Of a stretch of DNA of 64,000 bases, positions 24,540 through 35,439 are shown one piece after another (within the stretch, counting starts at the first letter, position 1; every line of letters begins with the position of its first letter). Location: positions 1 to 64,000 of the forward strand of contig JAWAQK010000004.1 in the NCBI GenBank assembly GCA_038893995.1, given 5' to 3'. The DNA is from Candidatus Thorarchaeota archaeon. Its GTDB lineage: Archaea; Asgardarchaeota; Thorarchaeia; Thorarchaeales; Thorarchaeaceae. The notes under the pieces are model-generated. The model made no database searches. It worked only from the letters and a program-made list of their open reading frames with translations, and had not been told where the DNA came from. Both the position numbers and the translations under genes were made by a program.

Positions 24540-26228
24540 TCAGGGCATGAAGTTCACAAAGAGAGTTGGGCCATTCTTCATGCCGGGGACGTAATTTCTC
24601 TCGTAGGGCCCGAAGACGTCGTGCACGCCCGTATTTATCATCCACTCGACCCACGACCACGATGCCTCTTGTCCAATCTTCTCCCTGGCATAGCTGCCGT
24701 ACGTCCAGCTGAGGTAGTTGAGTGCATCCAGTCGGAGGCCCCTCCTGCCGTCGTCGCTCATCTCTCCGAGACCTGCGTCGAGTGACGAACGCAGTTCCGT
24801 CCATCGTGACATGATGAGTTGTTCAGTTTCCTGCAGGCAGAGATTGATCTCGTCCACATTTCCTGCCTTTCGTGCACGGACCTGTCGCCCAATGATCTTA
24901 AAGAGGTCTGTTGTCTGGAGAACCGGTAGGCCTGCCTCGTTCAATCTCTGCGCCGAGCTCTGACTCCATGGTGTGTTGAAGTAGACTCGCGGATACCTCA
25001 GGACTCGCGGAACAGGAAGGCCAAGTTCGCGAATACATGGTAAGACCTGTGCATAGTACGATATCTCTCCCGGTCCGCCAATGTGACAGACTACGGGTAG
25101 CATGAAGTCTACGAGTATCTGGCGAGTGTCTACTCTTGGTGTAAGCATGAGGACATAGTCAGATAGGTCGGGCTGTCTCTCGTCGTACTCGATGCTAATT
25201 GTCTGTCCACAGACCGGACACGCCCCAGTGAGAATGCCCTTTCCCTGCGAATTGCCCTTCCGAATCTGGACCCTGCTCCGATGACAATCTCTCTCAGGGC
25301 ACTCAAGGAAGAACGGAGAGTAGTCATCTGTCCTCTGCGGCAGCCCTGCTCTATATCCTGCAGACTCTATTGCCCTCAGGGCCCTATTGCTCTCATTGAT
25401 GAATCTCACCCGATTTGTCTCAGTCAGGAGGAACTCCATGCCATCCTGCATCAGCCGTCTGACATCGGGATCAGAGTATGGAATGAGAGGAATTCCGAGG
25501 TCTCCAATGATATTGTAGAGGCTTCCCATTATCCTCTGATGCCAATCGCCCAGGGTGCTTGACTCGAAATACGATGCCCTCACTAGAGCCAGTGCGCTCT
25601 CAAGTCTCTCCTGGAAGAGTACTCTTGTCTTTGGCTCCAGTGTCTTGAACAGAGTCGAGTAGCTGTGCCGGACAGAGTGTTCCACCTGGACATACCACTC
25701 TGCATCAGGGAGTGGAAGTGTACCGGCCGGAGAATGTTCGTAGCCTCTCGGCACGGGAATACTGATCAGGTTCCCCTCTGAGTCTGGTCCAGGTGTCCTC
25801 ACATTTATGAGCTCCGGCTGAACAACATCATAGTCTGCCACAAAGAACACAGGCGCCATCTGTCCATTGGCAAAGTCCGCGACTCTCCTTGCGGTTGCTG
25901 CCTTGTTCAACATGAACACAGGGCCACCCATACACACGGTCTGGTGGGCAGCCTCAACCACACCTGATCCCATGTTGTTGATGCTGACCCTGACCCTCGG
26001 TGTCAGTATTCCAATCCGTTGGCTCAGTCTGAGAAGGACTGACTGTAGCTGTGAGATCCTGCTCTCGTCAAGTGTACCCTGCTGTCCATATGCCTCAAGT
26101 ACCTGTTCCGCCTCACGAGGCACCGCATCAATCGTGATCGGAGGATCGTCGTAGAGGTATCTCGCCAGTTCTGCGTGCTCGCCTCTCCAGATATACGACT
26201 GGTAGAGGCCTGCAATACTCTCAGCCAT
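24540..26228 (-). CDS. bshC: Bacillithiol biosynthesis cysteine-adding enzyme BshC (divergent, with four-Cys insertion)
   Basis: AAHQT...GGP.F.LNKA, PVFF.A.YD, TP.V.TR.....MLP...IGGPGEISYYAQ. Directly downstream of bshA. Confidence 0.82.
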   Translation of the reverse strand: MAESIAGLYQSYIWRGEHAELARYLYDDPPITIDAVPREAEQVLEAYGQQGTLDESRISQLQSVLLRLSQRIGILTPRVRVSINNMGSGVVEAAHQTVCMGGPVFMLNKAATARRVADFANGQMAPVFFVADYDVVQPELINVRTPGPDSEGNLISIPVPRGYEHSPAGTLPLPDAEWYVQVEHSVRHSYSTLFKTLEPKTRVLFQERLESALALVRASYFESSTLGDWHQRIMGSLYNIIGDLGIPLIPYSDPDVRRLMQDGMEFLLTETNRVRFINESNRALRAIESAGYRAGLPQRTDDYSPFFLECPERDCHRSRVQIRKGNSQGKGILTGACPVCGQTISIEYDERQPDLSDYVLMLTPRVDTRQILVDFMLPVVCHIGGPGEISYYAQVLPCIRELGLPVPRVLRYPRVYFNTPWSQSSAQRLNEAGLPVLQTTDLFKIIGRQVRARKAGNVDEINLCLQETEQLIMSRWTELRSSLDAGLGEMSDDGRRGLRLDALNYLSWTYGSYAREKIGQEASWSWVEWMINTGVHDVFGPYERNYVPGMKNGPTLFVNFMP

Positions 26229-26240
26229 TCCCTGTCTCCC

Positions 26241-27410
26241 TCAGCCATTCAGTGCGCTCCTGAGTACCTTCTCGTACCTTGGAACAATCACTTCGGGTGT
26301 GAACCCGTCCAATACTCTCCTTCTACCTGCCTTTCCGAGTCGAGCCCTGAGCCGGTCATCAGTAAGTAGACGAATGACCCCCTCTGCAAGCTCCTCCGTT
26401 TCAAATGTCTCGGTGACAATTCCGTCTATCCCGGGCCTGACCAACTCGGGTACCCCCCCTGCCGGTGTGGTCACGACGGGAAGCTCGCAGGCCATTGCCT
26501 CCAGCAGGACAAGAGGCATTCCTTCCAGATTGGAATTGAGGACAAAGAGGTCTGCTGACGACATCAGCTCGTTCACATTCGTCCTCACACCGATAAGATG
26601 TACTCTATTGCAGAGCCTATGTTGTTCGATCCTCCGCTCGACCTCTGTCCTTGTGGGCCCATCGCCTACCAGCAACAGCCTTGCTTCGGGAACATTATCC
26701 ACAACCAGTCGCATGGCATCGATCAGTTCTACTACCCTCTTCACCCTCCTGAAGTTTGAGACGTGCAGCAATATCCTGTCCTTCCGTGAGACAGTATGAT
26801 CCCGTCTCTCTCTCATCACTGGGCATCCGTCCTCTACAACAAGTTCGACCCTCGATGTGCGACGGAAGACCTTCGGGTCGATGAAGTTTGGAATGACCTC
26901 AATCTCTCTCTCTACGCCGAGTTTCTCAATGGCCATTTTCCTGAGGAAATCCGCAACTGTCGTCACTCTGTCTGCCTCACGTATGGTGTGCTTCACGACT
27001 GGCATGTAGGCGGGATTGGCCCCCAGCATATGTACGTCGCTGCCATGTAGTGTGAGGACGTACGGCACTCCCGTGATCTCTCTTGCAACATGCGCTGACA
27101 TGGCATGGGGAATCGCGTAGTGGACATGAATCACGTCGAGTCTGCTCGTATTCGCGACTTCGACCAATTTTGAGCATAATGTGACTGCATATTGAGTTCC
27201 AACGTCCTCAAAGAGTGGGTACTCGCCCTGGTCCACCAGGTGAACGAACAGGTGCAAGGGACGTTCTTGGGTCAGGCCAAAGGGAGTCCGGTAGGTGATG
27301 AAATGTATCTCATGACCCCTCTGGACCATGTGCTCTCCAAGCCGTGTCGCCAGGTGTCCCGAGCCTCCGACGGATGGGAACAGACTGACACCTATCTTCA
27401 TATACTTCAC
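26241..27410 (-). CDS. bshA: N-acetyl-alpha-D-glucosaminyl L-malate synthase (GT4)
   Basis: MKIG...PSVGGSG..AT.LG, HVHYAIPHA, TLHGSD, HVSNFR.VKRV, E...LVLLEAMA. These are BshA-specific signatures. Confidence 0.92.
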   Translation of the reverse strand: MKYMKIGVSLFPSVGGSGHLATRLGEHMVQRGHEIHFITYRTPFGLTQERPLHLFVHLVDQGEYPLFEDVGTQYAVTLCSKLVEVANTSRLDVIHVHYAIPHAMSAHVAREITGVPYVLTLHGSDVHMLGANPAYMPVVKHTIREADRVTTVADFLRKMAIEKLGVEREIEVIPNFIDPKVFRRTSRVELVVEDGCPVMRERRDHTVSRKDRILLHVSNFRRVKRVVELIDAMRLVVDNVPEARLLLVGDGPTRTEVERRIEQHRLCNRVHLIGVRTNVNELMSSADLFVLNSNLEGMPLVLLEAMACELPVVTTPAGGVPELVRPGIDGIVTETFETEELAEGVIRLLTDDRLRARLGKAGRRRVLDGFTPEVIVPRYEKVLRSALNG

Positions 27411-27469
27411 ATTCCTGAGTCGTACTACAATAGGGTACTGACAACGTCTTATGCGTGGTGGTCCTGCAA

Positions 27470-28162
27470 ATGGTATCGGAGCATCCTCATGCAGGCTCCG
27501 GCGGAGATCGTCCTTCTATCCTGGTCGTCTGCGCCCATCCTGACGACGAATGTATCGGTGCAGGGGGAACGGTTGCCAAACATGCCCACCTGGGCTTCCC
27601 GGTGCATGTATTGTGTCTGACTGGCAATCCAGAACGACATAGAGAACTCTCAGCCTCCTGCAAGACGCTTGGCGTCAGCACGCTACGCGCTATCGAACGC
27701 GGCGATCACGACATAGACTGGTCTCTAAGAGCAGTTGTCGTTGAGGCGATACTGGATGTCCGGCCTGCAGTTGTGATAACACACACTCCTGACGACTACA
27801 ACCGGGCTCATGAGATGTGTCACAGAGTTGTGGTCGAGGCTGTCGAGTGGGCCTCACATGTCACACAGTTCCCCAACGCACACAGGACCAGGCAAGTCCT
27901 CACGATGGAGATAAACACACTTCATCCGCATCCAAACATACTTGTCGATGTCTCTTCATCTTATGACGTGGCCATCAGTGCCCTCAGCGAACACAAGTCT
28001 CAGCTGAGAAAGTCAGACCGATTCTACGAGCGATTCTATGACGCAAGGACCAGGCTCAGGGGAGTACAGGCTGGATGTGAACGGGCAGAGGCATTTGGCA
28101 TAGTTCTCCCAACTCACGCCGGCCCGTTCTACACTATCAACAGTGTTGATACGCTTCTCTGA
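27470..28162 (+). CDS. bshB: PIG-L/LmbE deacetylase, probable BshB
   Basis: ILVVCAHPDDE.IG.GG, VDVS, H.SQ, RG...G...AEAF. Divergent from bshA across a gap of about 60 bp. Confidence 0.82.
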   Translation: MVSEHPHAGSGGDRPSILVVCAHPDDECIGAGGTVAKHAHLGFPVHVLCLTGNPERHRELSASCKTLGVSTLRAIERGDHDIDWSLRAVVVEAILDVRPAVVITHTPDDYNRAHEMCHRVVVEAVEWASHVTQFPNAHRTRQVLTMEINTLHPHPNILVDVSSSYDVAISALSEHKSQLRKSDRFYERFYDARTRLRGVQAGCERAEAFGIVLPTHAGPFYTINSVDTLL

Positions 28163-28163
28163 A

Positions 28164-28556
28164 CTACTCCTGCTCCGTCTCTGATCTCTTTCGTCTGGCG
28201 GCGAGCAATGCCTTTAGTTCGCCCATCATGCCGCCTCCAGGAGAGACTGGCTTCGGAGCGGCCGATACTGGTGCCTTCGCGATTGAGGGTGCTGCCTCGG
28301 CCGCCAGTGATGGTCCTCCTTCTGCAGGCGTCGGGGTGACTCCCCTTGCGATCCTGGACTCGAGAGAGCTGATCTTTGACTCGAGGCTATTCACCTGATT
28401 CTGGAGTGAGCTTATGTTCCCCTCAAGGACCCCGATTGCCTCTACCAGCTTGTGAGTAATTGTACTGACGACCTCTCCAAGCCCCCTGAGCTTCTCCTCT
28501 GTAGGATCCTTGAGTGCCCACTCAAACTCTTCCATGATGAAGTCATCGTCGCCCAT
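28164..28556 (-). CDS. Small coiled-coil + Pro/Ala linker protein with C-terminal Ena/VASP FAB-like motif
   Basis: Heptads IGVLEGNISSLQNQVNSLESKISSLESRI, linker TPTPAEGGP..APKPVSP, C-terminal GGGMMGELKALLAARRKR. Fills the gap between glmM and bshB. Confidence 0.75.
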   Translation of the reverse strand: MGDDDFIMEEFEWALKDPTEEKLRGLGEVVSTITHKLVEAIGVLEGNISSLQNQVNSLESKISSLESRIARGVTPTPAEGGPSLAAEAAPSIAKAPVSAAPKPVSPGGGMMGELKALLAARRKRSETEQE

Positions 28557-28587: not shown

Positions 28588-29982
28588 CTATAAAGGTTGT
28601 CTGCGCCGACTTGCAACCTCCACAATTGTGCTCTGGACTATTGGCTCGACGGAGTCGAGGATCTGCCTGAGACCGTCCGATGTCTTTGCCTCACAGGTGA
28701 TTCTAATCACCGGTTCCGTACCCGAGGGTCTCACAAGTGCCCAACCATTTCTCAACACGATCCCCAGTCCGTCGACCTTGGTGACACTGACTATCTCGGG
28801 TACACTGGACGGCAGTCTCCTCTCTAACAACTCCATCACGGGACCCTTGATGTGTTCTTCGCAGTTGAGCTTGACCTTGCTCAGGGGGTACACGGGTATG
28901 TCAGAGATGAGTTCTCCAAGAGTGCGGCCTGACTCAGCCATCAGTTCGAGTACCCTGCATACCGCGAGAAACGGTTCGGGTCCAAGGTGAAAATCGGGAA
29001 AGATGAAGACTCCGCAGGCCTCTCCTCCGAAGCATGCACCAGACTCCTGGATCTTCATGGCCACCTGAATGTCGCCAACGGGTGTGCGTATTGTCGCCCC
29101 ACCACTCTTTGAGACAGTGTCATCGAGTACCTGTGAGCTATCGACAGTCGTGACGACTGTCTTGGACGTGCAATCGCGAATCATCTCTCGCGCAAGGAGG
29201 GCAATGATCCGGTCTCCTCGTATGACCTCTCCAGTCTCTGACACGAAGACGACCCGGTCTGAATCGCCATCATGTGCCACACCCAGCGCGGCCCCACTCT
29301 GTCTTACCATAGTGACAAGGTCAGCAAGGGACTCTTCGTCCGGCTCCGATCTTCTGCCCGGAAAGTGCCCATCGAGCTGGCCGTTGATACTCAGGACTTT
29401 ACATCCAAGCTTACGCAGCAGGTACGGGGTCATGAGAGTACCAACACCATTACCGGGGTCGACCACCACCTTGAACCCCATGGATGCCACAAGACCAACG
29501 TCACAACGGTCTAGGATCGCCGTCATGTGTCTGGAAACTGCATGGTCAATCTGGGTGTCCTTTCCCAGCCGGTCCCACGTCTGGCGCTTGAACTCTCTGC
29601 GCTGCAGTATGTCCTCTATCCGCCGTTCCTGCTCGGGTGTGTAGCCCATGCCATCGGACCGCCAGAACTTGACCCCTGTGTACTCCGGTGGATTATGCGA
29701 CGCAGTCACTATGACTCCTGCAGCGTATCGATCAACTCCGGTCATGAATGCCAGAGTCGGTGTCGGTATCGTGCCCGCACGCACAACATCGACACCTGTT
29801 GACATCACGCCGGCAGCAAATGCATCTGCAATCATTCTCCCCGTCGTTCGGGCATCTTGCGCAAGTAGGATCTTCCCCTCACCAAGATAGGTCCCGAGAG
29901 CCATACCGAGGTCCAGCGCGAGATCCAGGGTGAACTCTGTCCCGTAGACCTTTCTCACTCCTGTCGTTCCAAAGAGGGACAC
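28588..29982 (-). CDS. glmM: Phosphoglucosamine mutase / phosphomannomutase
   Basis: LFGTTGVR, TASHNP (phospho-Ser), DGDSDR metal loop, GGE..G, VRPSGTEP. Probable GTG start 29982. Confidence 0.92.
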   Translation of the reverse strand: MSLFGTTGVRKVYGTEFTLDLALDLGMALGTYLGEGKILLAQDARTTGRMIADAFAAGVMSTGVDVVRAGTIPTPTLAFMTGVDRYAAGVIVTASHNPPEYTGVKFWRSDGMGYTPEQERRIEDILQRREFKRQTWDRLGKDTQIDHAVSRHMTAILDRCDVGLVASMGFKVVVDPGNGVGTLMTPYLLRKLGCKVLSINGQLDGHFPGRRSEPDEESLADLVTMVRQSGAALGVAHDGDSDRVVFVSETGEVIRGDRIIALLAREMIRDCTSKTVVTTVDSSQVLDDTVSKSGGATIRTPVGDIQVAMKIQESGACFGGEACGVFIFPDFHLGPEPFLAVCRVLELMAESGRTLGELISDIPVYPLSKVKLNCEEHIKGPVMELLERRLPSSVPEIVSVTKVDGLGIVLRNGWALVRPSGTEPVIRITCEAKTSDGLRQILDSVEPIVQSTIVEVASRRRQPL

Positions 29983-30177
29983 CTTCTCACCACCAGACCC
30001 TGTTCTGTGGTAGATGAAAAATGTAATGCTCTGAGGGGGGAACACTCTTGAACTCCGGTCAGTCGAGTGACCTCTGGAATCCTGATACTGGTCCGAGAAA
30101 GCTTATTAGGCCCGCATGAGCTACTCGCCAACCGATTACTGGCGGTCAAGACGATACTGGAGAGTCTGGAATGGCAG

Positions 30178-30726
30178 ATGAGTAGTACGTATGATTATCT
30201 ATTCAAGACGGTTGTTCTGGGGGAGGGTGCTGTCGGAAAGACTGCGATAGTCACCAGATTCTCGCATGGTTTCTTCAGGACTGACTACAAGACCACGATC
30301 GGGTCCCAGTTTGCAGTGAAGAGCATCGATGTCTTCACTAAGAGCGGAAATCGTGTCACTGTAAAGCTTCAGATATGGGATGTGGCTGGTCAGTCCCGTT
30401 TTCAGATACTCAGACCGATGTATTATCGGGGATCCAGCGGCGGTCTGCTAGTCTATGATGTCACCAGAAGGCGTACGTTCCTAGTGCTCGACGAGTGGCT
30501 CGAGGAACTGAGGAAGTCAGTCAACAAGGACATTCCTCTCGTATTGGTCGCAAACAAGATAGACCTCCCCGACAGAGTGGTGACTGCAGCAGAGGGCAAG
30601 AAGTATGCCGAGGAGCACGGGATGCCCTACGTGGAGTCTAGTGCCAAGAGCGGAGAGGGTATTCTGGACGTATTCGAGAGTCTTGCGAAGACACTGATTG
30701 AGGCTCGAGAGGCTGGACGCGCTTAG
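30178..30726 (+). CDS. Rab-like small GTPase (Ras superfamily, eukaryotic signature protein)
   Basis: YDYLFK, GEGAVGKT (G1), TIG (G2), KLQIWDVAGQ (G3), YYRGS, LVYDVT, NKID (G4), SAK (G5). No C-terminal Cys. Confidence 0.95.
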   Translation: MSSTYDYLFKTVVLGEGAVGKTAIVTRFSHGFFRTDYKTTIGSQFAVKSIDVFTKSGNRVTVKLQIWDVAGQSRFQILRPMYYRGSSGGLLVYDVTRRRTFLVLDEWLEELRKSVNKDIPLVLVANKIDLPDRVVTAAEGKKYAEEHGMPYVESSAKSGEGILDVFESLAKTLIEAREAGRA

Positions 30727-30771: not shown

Positions 30772-31359
30772 GTGTTCATGACCAAGCCGGACGAGTACTT
30801 CCCTGTCAACACAATTCCTGCTCTCTCATGGGCATTTGAGTTGTATCTGAAGAACAACGGCAGGTTCAAGGATGCTCCTGTTGTCGAACTCATACTTCAG
30901 GCTGGACAACATCGCGAATTGCTCAGCAAGAAGGGTGGCCACGAGATCATCGTGTGGATATCGAGGCGTCGCATCTACGTCCGGGCAAGATGCCTCGAGG
31001 ACAAGGACTGTGAGTTCAATGTGGACAGGATTGACGGACGAGACCGAGAGGCCCTGAAGAAGCTGGCGTGGGACAAGATAGACGCGCGCAGATTCTTTGT
31101 GATGCTCCGCAAGTGGATAATGCGGCTCGACCTCGACAATATACTGTTCATAAGGGCGCTCAACACAGTGTGCGATCACAAGGTGAGGATCCCATTGACC
31201 ACGCAGTATGGGCGAACATTCGAGAAGTTTGATGAATACCGACGCAATCGATGGCCCGAGGATGTCACCCCTGACGATATGGACCGCTTCATCGAGGAGT
31301 TGCTGATGCGGGTGTCATTCTGGTTCCAGAGCGCGGCAGCGGTTGGAGCGCTCGTCTGA
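30772..31359 (+). CDS. Hypothetical protein directly downstream of the Rab-like GTPase
   Basis: 195 aa soluble, aromatic-rich, C-x5-C; co-oriented with a 45-bp gap. Confidence 0.75.
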   Translation: MFMTKPDEYFPVNTIPALSWAFELYLKNNGRFKDAPVVELILQAGQHRELLSKKGGHEIIVWISRRRIYVRARCLEDKDCEFNVDRIDGRDREALKKLAWDKIDARRFFVMLRKWIMRLDLDNILFIRALNTVCDHKVRIPLTTQYGRTFEKFDEYRRNRWPEDVTPDDMDRFIEELLMRVSFWFQSAAAVGALV

Positions 31360-34131: not shown

Positions 34132-35439
34132 CTACAGATCAAACCCGGTCCGACCAGTTCCCCATGACTCGAGGGCCCTGCGTAGCTCAACATGGTCCTC
34201 TGCATACTTCTTGAGGGGTATCTTGTTCATGACTGCATCGATTGCCTGACGGAATGCCCTGGCACCGGCCCTTGGCCCGTCAGGATGTGCGTGAATGCCG
34301 CCCCCCGAGCCGATGACTATGTCTGGTCCCAGGTCTCCGACGACTTCGTCCACCATCCCAGGTGAGATACCTCCGCTAGGCATGGGTGCAGTCTGTCTGA
34401 TGTGATGTAGAGGCATGACCATCTCCCTGGCCATTGCAATGAATCTCTCTTTCAGCAGTGGTGCTTTCCCATATGGGGCCGGAAATACAGTGATGTCAGA
34501 ACCACAGATGCGTGGCAGCTTGCCTATGACGAGGTTGGTTCCCACTCCGGTTATTGGCGAATAGGACAGAGCACCCGTTATGTCCATGTGAGCCAGTACG
34601 GGCACGTTTAGCGATGGGTCCTCACATACATGGCGGAACGCGGAATACCCCACTGCGAGGAAGTTTATCATCAGTGCATTTGCACCAAGCTCTATTGCCC
34701 GCTCTGCGTTCTCGAACATCTTCGGGACCTCGTCCGTGATGTTCACCGTGAAGAGCGTCTTCTCTCCCTTCTCCGAGTTGGCCCGGTCAATGGCCTCCAT
34801 GAATAGTGGGATTCTCTCCTCGATGGAGTTGAAACAGGCATTCGCGAGGAGTTCGTCATCCTTGATTATGTCCGCTCCGCCGGCCGCAGCCTCGTAACAG
34901 AGACTCGCACCCAGTTTGGCCGAAGTATACACACAGGGCTTGATCATATTGTTGAGCAGCGGGCGTTCCTTCACCCCGAGCAGCTTTCTGAGACCCTCGA
35001 TGCCGAACTTTGGTCCCTTGAACTCCTTCAGCCAACTCTGTGGAAACCTGAGGTCTAGGAGCTTTATCCTGCCACCAAGAGATATGTTTCCCACCACCGT
35101 GCTCAGGAGCATCGGTATCTGAGCCCCAAAGTTCTCCCACGGAAAGGCTACCTGAATGATGTACTCTCGTCTCTCGAGGTCCTTGGGAATGCTATACTCA
35201 TACTGGGGGACCTCGTACACGCCGATTACCCTTGCAATATGCCGTCTCCTCACATCGGGAGTTTCTCCTGGCACTGGTGTCCAAGTACCAGTGCTCTGCT
35301 CCACTGCGGCAGCATGAGCTACCTCTCTCGCATCTATGAATGGAGGTAATCCAACATAGTACGTACCTATCACATACTTCTCCGGGTCAATCGCATCGGC
35401 AAGTGCGTCTGGCAGGGAATCGAGTGGCTCTCTGTGCAT
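34132..35439 (-). CDS. RuBisCO-like protein (form IV)
   Basis: EQSTGTW, GPKFG, IKP, GADIIKDDE, SGG, GGGIH.HPDG. The second Lys of KPK and the Arg of HR are missing. Confidence 0.9.
   Translation of the reverse strand: MHREPLDSLPDALADAIDPEKYVIGTYYVGLPPFIDAREVAHAAAVEQSTGTWTPVPGETPDVRRRHIARVIGVYEVPQYEYSIPKDLERREYIIQVAFPWENFGAQIPMLLSTVVGNISLGGRIKLLDLRFPQSWLKEFKGPKFGIEGLRKLLGVKERPLLNNMIKPCVYTSAKLGASLCYEAAAGGADIIKDDELLANACFNSIEERIPLFMEAIDRANSEKGEKTLFTVNITDEVPKMFENAERAIELGANALMINFLAVGYSAFRHVCEDPSLNVPVLAHMDITGALSYSPITGVGTNLVIGKLPRICGSDITVFPAPYGKAPLLKERFIAMAREMVMPLHHIRQTAPMPSGGISPGMVDEVVGDLGPDIVIGSGGGIHAHPDGPRAGARAFRQAIDAVMNKIPLKKYAEDHVELRRALESWGTGRTGFDL

Follow-up and report, generated by a model that had tools for sequence, protein, structure and literature searches.

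Does the Thorarchaeota DNA analysed here, a stretch of 64,000 nucleotides that we call the window, encode an actin-filament regulator built like the Ena/VASP proteins of eukaryotes? The original prediction held that it does, in the form of a minimal oligomer that would carry the F-actin-binding (FAB) motif of the Ena/VASP EVH2 domain behind a coiled coil. The protein in question, P0001, has 130 residues and is read from a minus-strand ORF (Table 1). Its gene is genuine and belongs to a family without published description: P0001 has 338 homologs at E<=1e-3, and a TTTATAG box precedes the family gene in 9/9 Thorarchaeota loci shown. With this box ~33 nt upstream of its ATG, the gene probably has its own promoter; a scan for sigma-70 promoters and terminators at the gene came back empty, with a model that does not cover archaeal promoters. 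In the source genome, the phosphohexomutase gene upstream ends with a stop codon that overlaps this box. The expectation that the protein would be found annotated only as hypothetical, and would be undescribed, was borne out: the named homologs are Thorarchaeota hypothetical proteins, no curated Pfam family covers P0001 or 33 of its orthologs, and literature searches returned no description of the family.

Table 1. Features of the P0001 locus, and proteins of other Asgard genomes that carry the same end helix (positions in the window unless a locus is named)
Feature	Position	Strand	Basis and remarks
P0001 gene, member of an unnamed pan-Asgard family	28164..28556	-	ORF; homolog and profile searches
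N-terminal acidic/aromatic helix, aa 3-16	28509..28550	-	AlphaFold2 and alignment
Coiled coil, aa 20-70; a/d positions mostly Leu/Ile/Val	28347..28499	-	AlphaFold2 and heptad count
Disordered Ala/Pro/Ser linker, aa 73-106	28239..28340	-	AlphaFold2 and composition; variable in the family
FAB-like end motif, aa 107-124: Gly run, amphipathic helix M110-A120, basic R121-R124	28185..28238	-	Alignment and FAB comparison
Archaeal TATA box TTTATAG, ~33 nt 5' of the ATG	28588..28595	-	Sequence; function inferred
Upstream neighbour, PGM/PMM-family phosphohexomutase	28588..30045	-	Pfam and locus comparison; constant neighbour only in Thorarchaeota
Convergent downstream neighbour, PIG-L family deacetylase (BshB-like)	27455..28162	+	Pfam and locus comparison; constant neighbour only in Thorarchaeota
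Arf/Rag-like GTPases with the helix	L182:1099-2523:+, L183:2543-3805:-, L184:1296-2543:+, L185:564-1841:-, L196:2382-3863:-, L197:2279-3385:-		
Recombinase-like proteins with the helix	L052:1-1686:+, L057:58-1749:+, L058:109-1749:+, L075:1348-3045:-		

The neighbours of the family gene are constant within Thorarchaeota and other ones in different Asgard classes, so that gene context is uninformative on the function of the family, and a functional tie of P0001 to the flanking bacillithiol/PMM genes was rejected on the same ground. The bacillithiol-type cluster that adjoins the gene (24540-28162: BshC-like protein, BshA-like glycosyltransferase and divergent PIG-L deacetylase) has a gene order conserved in Thorarchaeota. 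Divergent from the PMM gene lies a gene for a Ras-family (Rab-like) small GTPase (30067-30726, plus strand), followed by a 195-aa ORF without Pfam match (30772-31359, plus strand), and a RuBisCO-like protein (34132-35439, minus strand) adjoins a formate-THF ligase/FolD cluster.

Asgard archaea are close prokaryotic relatives of eukaryotes, and the family, usually in single copy, occurs across most of their lineages. With P0001 as query, one copy was found in 72/76 genomes of its own taxonomic family, together with weaker matches in Loki-type and other Asgard families; the profile of the protein family matches 227/301 Asgard genomes (E<=1e-5), though some of those weaker than ~1e-10 may be coiled-coil proteins of other kinds. 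Ortholog sequences were inspected individually in Loki, Hel, Freyr/Jord, Odin-sized and other genomes, with some of these lineage labels inferred, and orthologs are present in L. ossiferum and in P. syntrophicum MK-D1. One Helarchaeales-like genome carries two tandem, diverged copies (L049, G297:C202:82-973). The sole named match outside Asgard, Bathyarchaeota protein P0117, sits on a contig that is probably mis-binned, as judged from its Thorarchaeota gene order over 4 kb and from 51% identity. All other named matches are Asgard, within searches that went beyond Asgard to a limited extent.

The structure predicted by AlphaFold2 from a 33-row alignment comprises three helices (residues 3-16, 20-70 and 110-128), with pLDDT below 50 at residues 79-97, in what would be a disordered linker, and a monomer without defined packing (pTM 0.39). 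Coil, linker and end motif, the three parts first described, are all present, but that description overlooked a fourth conserved part, the N-terminal helix, which is strongly conserved in Thorarchaeota and alignable in other Asgard orthologs. The long heptad coiled coil is evident, with 12/14 hydrophobic a/d positions over residues 23-69. At residues 61-66 it contains a K-variant of RhxxhE, the Arg form of which is a known trimerisation motif (PMC5940361); (R/K)hxxhE is found in 23/29 orthologs versus 2.3 in shuffles, which do not keep heptad order, and trimeric coils are numerous among the top PDB matches of the N-terminal profile of the family. The coiled coil of P0001 probably forms a parallel oligomer; as to its order, we infer a trimer and claim nothing firmer, because the shuffle control ignores the heptad order. 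The linker, which had been described as rich in Pro and Ala, is indeed so (9 Ala, 8 Pro and 4 Ser in 34 residues), and it is Pro/Ala-rich rather than polyproline because no two of its prolines are adjacent: prolines stand singly throughout P0001, form runs of no more than 4 in Thorarchaeota homologs, and reach runs of 5 only in Loki/Hel orthologs. Among 120 Thorarchaeota homologs the linker varies freely and the end helix is invariant or nearly so. Searches of Pfam, PDB sequences and Foldseek with P0001 or the family gave generic coiled-coil matches only, and a search of the ESM Atlas returned three archaeal clusters without names, with no named match that was usable for the P0001 tail. On its architecture alone, P0001 is very likely a homo-oligomeric adaptor with tethered helices.

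What would the tethered helix be for? One conceivable use is internal to the family: the end helix might fold back on, or cross-link, the family's own N-terminal helix or coil, in autoinhibition or self-assembly, making P0001 a small subunit of a larger helical complex in the manner of BRK1 or CCDC53. The N-terminal helix is acidic and the C-terminal one basic, both are conserved, and P0001 resembles BRK1/HSPC300 (of WAVE) and CCDC53 (of WASH) in having a short N-terminal helix plus coiled coil at a similar length. The CCDC53 Pfam family also matches 4/33 members (best 8.6e-5), at a level so weak that it is indistinguishable from generic coiled-coil noise. Against this idea, which we consider improbable, CCDC53 (PF10152, cut-off 24.6 bits) reaches its cut-off in 0/101 Asgard genomes (best 22.4 bits), neither BRK1 nor CCDC53 ranks among the best 60 PDB matches to the N-terminal profile, the predicted monomer offers no packing of the kind required, and the same helix is found on other proteins, as described below.

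The end motif occupies exactly the residues, and the nucleotides, that had been claimed for it. M111, E113, L114, K115, L118, A120 and R121 are invariant in the 120 Thorarchaeota homologs, and G112, L117, A119 and R122 are nearly so; the helix is amphipathic and basic, with a hydrophobic moment of 0.36, and occurs once in the source genome. Outside Thorarchaeota, S-L/A-R usually precedes it in place of the Gly run. A profile made without any Thorarchaeota sequence nevertheless retrieves the P0001 helix as the only match in the source genome (E 0.001), so that the helix is homologous across Asgard archaea, and the conservation of the motif in orthologs, proposed earlier as a check, thus holds.

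For the comparison with known actin-binding motifs, the FAB, GAB and N-WASP/WASP queries were taken from published papers, and the FAB sequence given with the original prediction agrees with the published one (PMC10340426). P0001 and FAB are identical at 11/18 aligned positions. As a query, FAB places P0001 at rank 1 of 5,768 ORFs in the genome (score 56, next 36; 40 versus 36 with the glycines left out), and 0/60 shuffled FAB peptides reached the real score anywhere in the genome. By HMMER the match has a per-genome E of 0.036, uncorrected for the number of eukaryotic motifs that could have been chosen for comparison; E ranges from 0.01 to 0.5 in 12 other Thorarchaeota genomes, these pairwise matches being helped by the Thorarchaeota-specific Gly run, and the FAB query found no family match outside Thorarchaeota genomes. 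In the reverse direction, FAB scores above all 806,717 background windows, non-coding frames included, on the Thorarchaeota and mixed family profiles, and above all but 2 of them on the non-Thorarchaeota profile. On a second Thorarchaeota-free profile FAB stands at 5e-6 to 2e-5 (~4 of 817,393 background windows score higher on the core profile), versus 1e-3 to 1e-2 for WH2 helices and N-WASP C. Because of the rank, the shuffles and the background-window scores, we regard the likeness to VASP FAB as beyond chance. It is real for the motif itself and, of the motifs compared, is peculiar to FAB, as a similarity found post hoc over 14-18 residues.

How far does the likeness to Ena/VASP extend beyond this motif? 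In human VASP, GAB spans residues 223-239, FAB 259-278 and the tetramerising coil 343-380 (PMC10340426, PMC3003327). P0001 shares with EVH2 a FAB-like helix with a basic tail, to which a disordered Pro-rich linker and a Gly run lead up, and a coiled coil for oligomerisation. Unlike Ena/VASP, it has no EVH1 domain (the 130 residues are all helix and coil in the AlphaFold2 model, and Pfam finds no match), no GAB (a GAB query ranks the ORF 25th, on linker sequence) and no polyproline. Its coil is N-terminal, of heptad type and probably trimeric, in contrast to the C-terminal, right-handed tetramer of VASP, to which it has no Pfam or PDB match, and no profile-level homology extends beyond the motif. 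An LKK-type pattern occurs in 0/120 Thorarchaeota linkers and 0/33 linkers of the mixed set A2. WH2 (PF02205, cut-off 23.1 bits) has no match in P0001, in the 33 orthologs or in the Heimdall-class long forms discussed below, and passes its cut-off in 0/83 Heimdall-class genomes, with none at family genes. The anticipated match to WH2 or VASP profiles is thus missing from Pfam, and the proposal that P0001 has the same parts list as EVH2 does not stand, since P0001 lacks both a G-actin-binding (GAB/WH2) motif and polyproline.

This bears directly on the strongest version of the original prediction, that the protein is a minimal actin elongation factor or nucleator of the Ena/VASP type. The FAB likeness and the oligomerising coil favour it, as does the GAB-like-then-FAB-like order in the Heimdall-class long forms. 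However, barbed-end elongation by VASP needs GAB, elongation is not enhanced by VASP mutated in GAB, and in the assay conditions of the same study no F-actin binding was seen for VASP as a monomer or dimer (PMC3003327). Since P0001 has no GAB, a role as elongation factor is unlikely; we give this version, counted as one part of the case for actin, very little probability.

Other known systems resemble P0001 to varying degrees. The VCA region of WASP/N-WASP consists of WH2, a central helix and an acidic tail (sequences from PMC6624021). P0001 has in common with it an amphipathic helix, basic at its end, behind a Pro-rich linker, and the Heimdall-class long forms have acidic stretches. Unlike this region, P0001 has no acidic Trp motif, no Trp in its tail and no WH2 Pfam match, the N-WASP C query ranks it 87th, far below FAB, with a background fraction of 1e-4 to 7e-3 on Thorarchaeota-free profiles, and WH2 helices reach ~1e-3 on such profiles. 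A precedent in design is arcadin-2, the crenactin regulator of Pyrobaculum (PDB 5LY3), whose C-terminal helix, carried on an unstructured linker, binds the hydrophobic groove of crenactin (PMC5173319); in P0001, too, the C-terminal helix is conserved and is carried by a linker that is unstructured and not conserved. It differs from arcadin-2 in giving no sequence match in PDB profile searches and in its genomic setting, arcadin-2 being encoded in the crenactin cluster and actin lying beside the family gene at 0/101 family loci (flanks 1.5-3 kb). By analogy, the mode of action of P0001 may be that of the FAB-plus-oligomer half of VASP or that of arcadin-2.

Evidence of another kind comes from the occurrence of the same helix on other proteins (Table 1). 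Arf/Rag-like GTPases of Loki-type genomes (369-494 aa) end in it, mostly after a short coil and Pro linker. Tyrosine-recombinase-like (integrase-like) proteins (PF00589) of Heimdall-class genomes bear it on a Pro/Gly tail, one of them (L052) with an LSKAP motif upstream of the helix as well; these proteins could tether DNA to the partner of the helix. A 697-aa protein of MK-D1 (L205:673-2766:+), low in complexity and membrane-anchored in appearance, has an internal Pro linker and a copy of the helix, and a Heimdall-class protein of >500 aa has it at the N-terminus (f22 genomes, L053, L059, L063, L065, L067, L070), with no Pfam family in the part scanned (L053). One further protein (L045:2393-2992:-, genome G142) combines coil and Pro linker, but a small helical domain takes the place of the family helix at its end. 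Because the same helix recurs on GTPases, integrase-like and other proteins, the pattern speaks for a docking peptide of general use that has one conserved partner.

Two readings other than actin draw on this recurrence. By the first, the end helix would be an amphipathic polybasic membrane anchor, the oligomer would tether or sense membranes, and the same tail would replace a lipid modification on small GTPases. Eukaryotic small GTPases carry polybasic membrane anchors at the C-terminus, and the helix, amphipathic and basic, stands at the C-terminus of small GTPases here too; on the other side, invariance at the level of single residues, including Glu113, Gly112 and Ala119/Ala120, is more easily reconciled with a protein interface than with a lipid surface, and the helix is short and only moderately hydrophobic. 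We find a membrane anchor rather improbable. By the second reading, the helix docks on a protein other than actin that several Asgard clients share. This might be a Vps4-type AAA ATPase, bound at its MIT domain in the manner of MIM1, or a trafficking or GTPase scaffold, and the FAB likeness of the helix would then reflect convergence of short basic amphipathic helices. Its presence on the GTPases, the MK-D1 protein, the integrase-like proteins and the large Heimdall-class protein speaks for such a partner, as does the ending E-L-x-x-L-F-x-R-L-R of the Jord/Freyr/f22 versions, which we take to resemble the MIM1 of ESCRT-III; the source genome also encodes two Snf7 proteins and a MIT-domain protein. 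P0001 itself has the general layout of ESCRT-III, with a helical N-terminal part, a flexible linker and a short C-terminal amphipathic helix. It differs from ESCRT-III in having no Snf7 match (PF03357 matches two other genes of the genome), and the Thorarchaeota helix presumably lacks the MIM1 pattern. Moreover, the two ESCRT-III tails of the genome are acidic and do not match the motif, ESCRT or GTPase genes form no conserved neighbourhood with the family, and a non-actin partner leaves unexplained the LKK-type motif and the polyproline runs of other lineages. A non-actin partner is nonetheless a distinct possibility, to which we return with the in vivo data. As for direct membership, P0001 was rejected as a member of the Ena/VASP, WH2, WASP, ESCRT-III or CCDC53 families, defining features of each having been looked for and not found.

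The longer forms of Heimdall-class genomes go further than P0001 towards known actin regulators. Protein P0163 (L082:1462-2253:+), found in 11/12 genomes of its taxonomic family, has the head of the protein family, polyproline, a helix with LKKAP motif, a FAB-like helix, an acidic stretch and a second end helix. Members from two further Heimdall-class families have an L(K/S)KAP motif 16-24 aa ahead of the same helix, and a looser variant occurs in one additional member. Across the Heimdall-class members of several families, a helix plus L(K/S)KAP motif thus stands 16-73 aa before the end helix, which is the GAB-then-FAB order of VASP and a likeness to EVH2 that P0001 does not have. We treat the GAB-like motif as a lead only, because it has no WH2 score in Pfam. 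The Heimdall-class long forms are better candidates than the Thorarchaeota protein for a VASP/WASP-like actin regulator. Further long forms (L072:1240-2289:-, L078:835-1812:+, L079:811-1818:+, L094:1081-1962:-) were noted, and long forms of this class show coil, Pro-rich arm, LKK-type motif, FAB-like helix, acidic stretch and second end helix. Thorarchaeota and Heimdall profilins bind VASP polyproline weakly (PMC8410842). A conserved ~740-aa protein of f22 genomes (L156-L165, 9 genomes) has an internal helix whose WH2 score, up to 19.5 bits, narrowly misses the cut-off, with no LKK motif after it, and was rejected as a member of the family.

Is actin, then, available as a partner, and does it associate with the family in vivo? 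Asgard genomes encode actin, as had been assumed: 20/20 high-quality genomes tested do so, and the source genome encodes actin and gelsolins, its only actin lying on another contig than P0001. That actin gene, at L051:1495-2631:-, is ~2 kb from a gene for a two-domain gelsolin (L051, L130; contig C33, 12989-16681). The profilin family PF00235 had no match in the source genome, by a search whose control was uninformative. In L. ossiferum, the neighbour upstream of the ortholog is an Elf1-like protein (UYP45915, 24.0 kDa) that matches GNAMCCOK_02218, and from gene order and this mass the ortholog itself, encoded at L137:3001-3456:+, would be GNAMCCOK_02219, equivalent to NEF87_002201. The latter was detected in 16/16 L. 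ossiferum proteomes at a mean log2 of 18.5, compared to 21.7 for actin and 17.4 for profilin Pro2 (bioRxiv 10.1101/2025.11.30.690169; PMC13716822). In the cross-linked Lokiactin pull-down (Suppl. Table 2), GNAMCCOK_02219 is absent among the co-IP rows listed, which run from a log2 ratio of +10 to -1.06 with 841 rows beyond, and so it was not enriched with the Lokiactin antibody. Gelsolin is enriched at 3.97 and profilin at 1.07 (bioRxiv 10.1101/2025.11.30.690169). This non-enrichment is the strongest evidence against actin, counts also against an Ena/VASP-type elongation factor and favours a non-actin partner. It is softened by the noise of the experiment, in which the Elf1-like neighbour reaches 1.36, above profilin, by the rows beyond those listed, and by the weak binding to be expected of FAB alone. 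An Arf protein enriched in the same co-IP (38.1 kDa, likely L220) was considered as a carrier of the helix and rejected, since it is without the helix.

Taking these observations together, we tentatively favour actin as the likeliest single partner of the P0001 helix. For it speak the near-invariance of the helix beside a freely varying linker, the FAB likeness, the GAB-then-FAB order of the Heimdall-class forms, the five-Pro runs of Loki/Hel orthologs, the presence of actin in Asgard genomes and the precedent of arcadin-2; against it speak the co-IP, the lack of an actin neighbourhood and of a WH2 or VASP Pfam match, the confinement of pairwise FAB matches to Thorarchaeota, the absence of the helix from the co-IP-enriched Arf, the missing profilin match in the source genome, and the helix on GTPases and integrase-like proteins, which need not involve actin. 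A non-actin partner seems to us quite possible, if doubtful. The coiled coil would join the chains in a parallel oligomer, probably a trimer, and in the predicted structure every chain presents a single copy of the conserved amphipathic, basic helix at the end of a flexible tether of ~35 residues. The end helix would dock on a conserved partner protein, a role to which its invariance points. Let us assume that this partner is actin. The hydrophobic face (M110/M111, L114, L117/L118) would then be set on Asgard actin and the Arg/Lys tail on the acidic surface of actin, in the way put forward for VASP FAB. Lacking both a G-actin motif and polyproline, the Thorarchaeota form would act through weak, avidity-dependent contacts, as a side-binder, cross-linker or tether of filaments and not as a processive polymerase. 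The Loki forms with polyproline and the Heimdall-class long forms with the LKK-type motif may add profilin or monomer binding.

One may extend this scenario to the family as an archaeal forerunner of the eukaryotic FAB or WH2-C module, in which the short form would bind or cross-link actin filaments, Loki lineages would have added polyproline and Heimdall-class lineages a G-actin-type motif, coming near to the layout of VASP/WASP before eukaryogenesis, and the same helix would couple GTPases and DNA-binding proteins to actin. Taken as a whole we regard this extension as unlikely, though not negligibly so. Irrespective of the details, the FAB-like helix family, conserved, expressed and mostly single-copy, together with the GAB-like motif of the eukaryote-proximal Heimdall-class forms offers a cheap and direct test of the origin of WH2/FAB-type regulation. 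If the partner is not actin, the helix common to this family, the Arf/Rag-like GTPases and the recombinase-like proteins would point to an Asgard hub.
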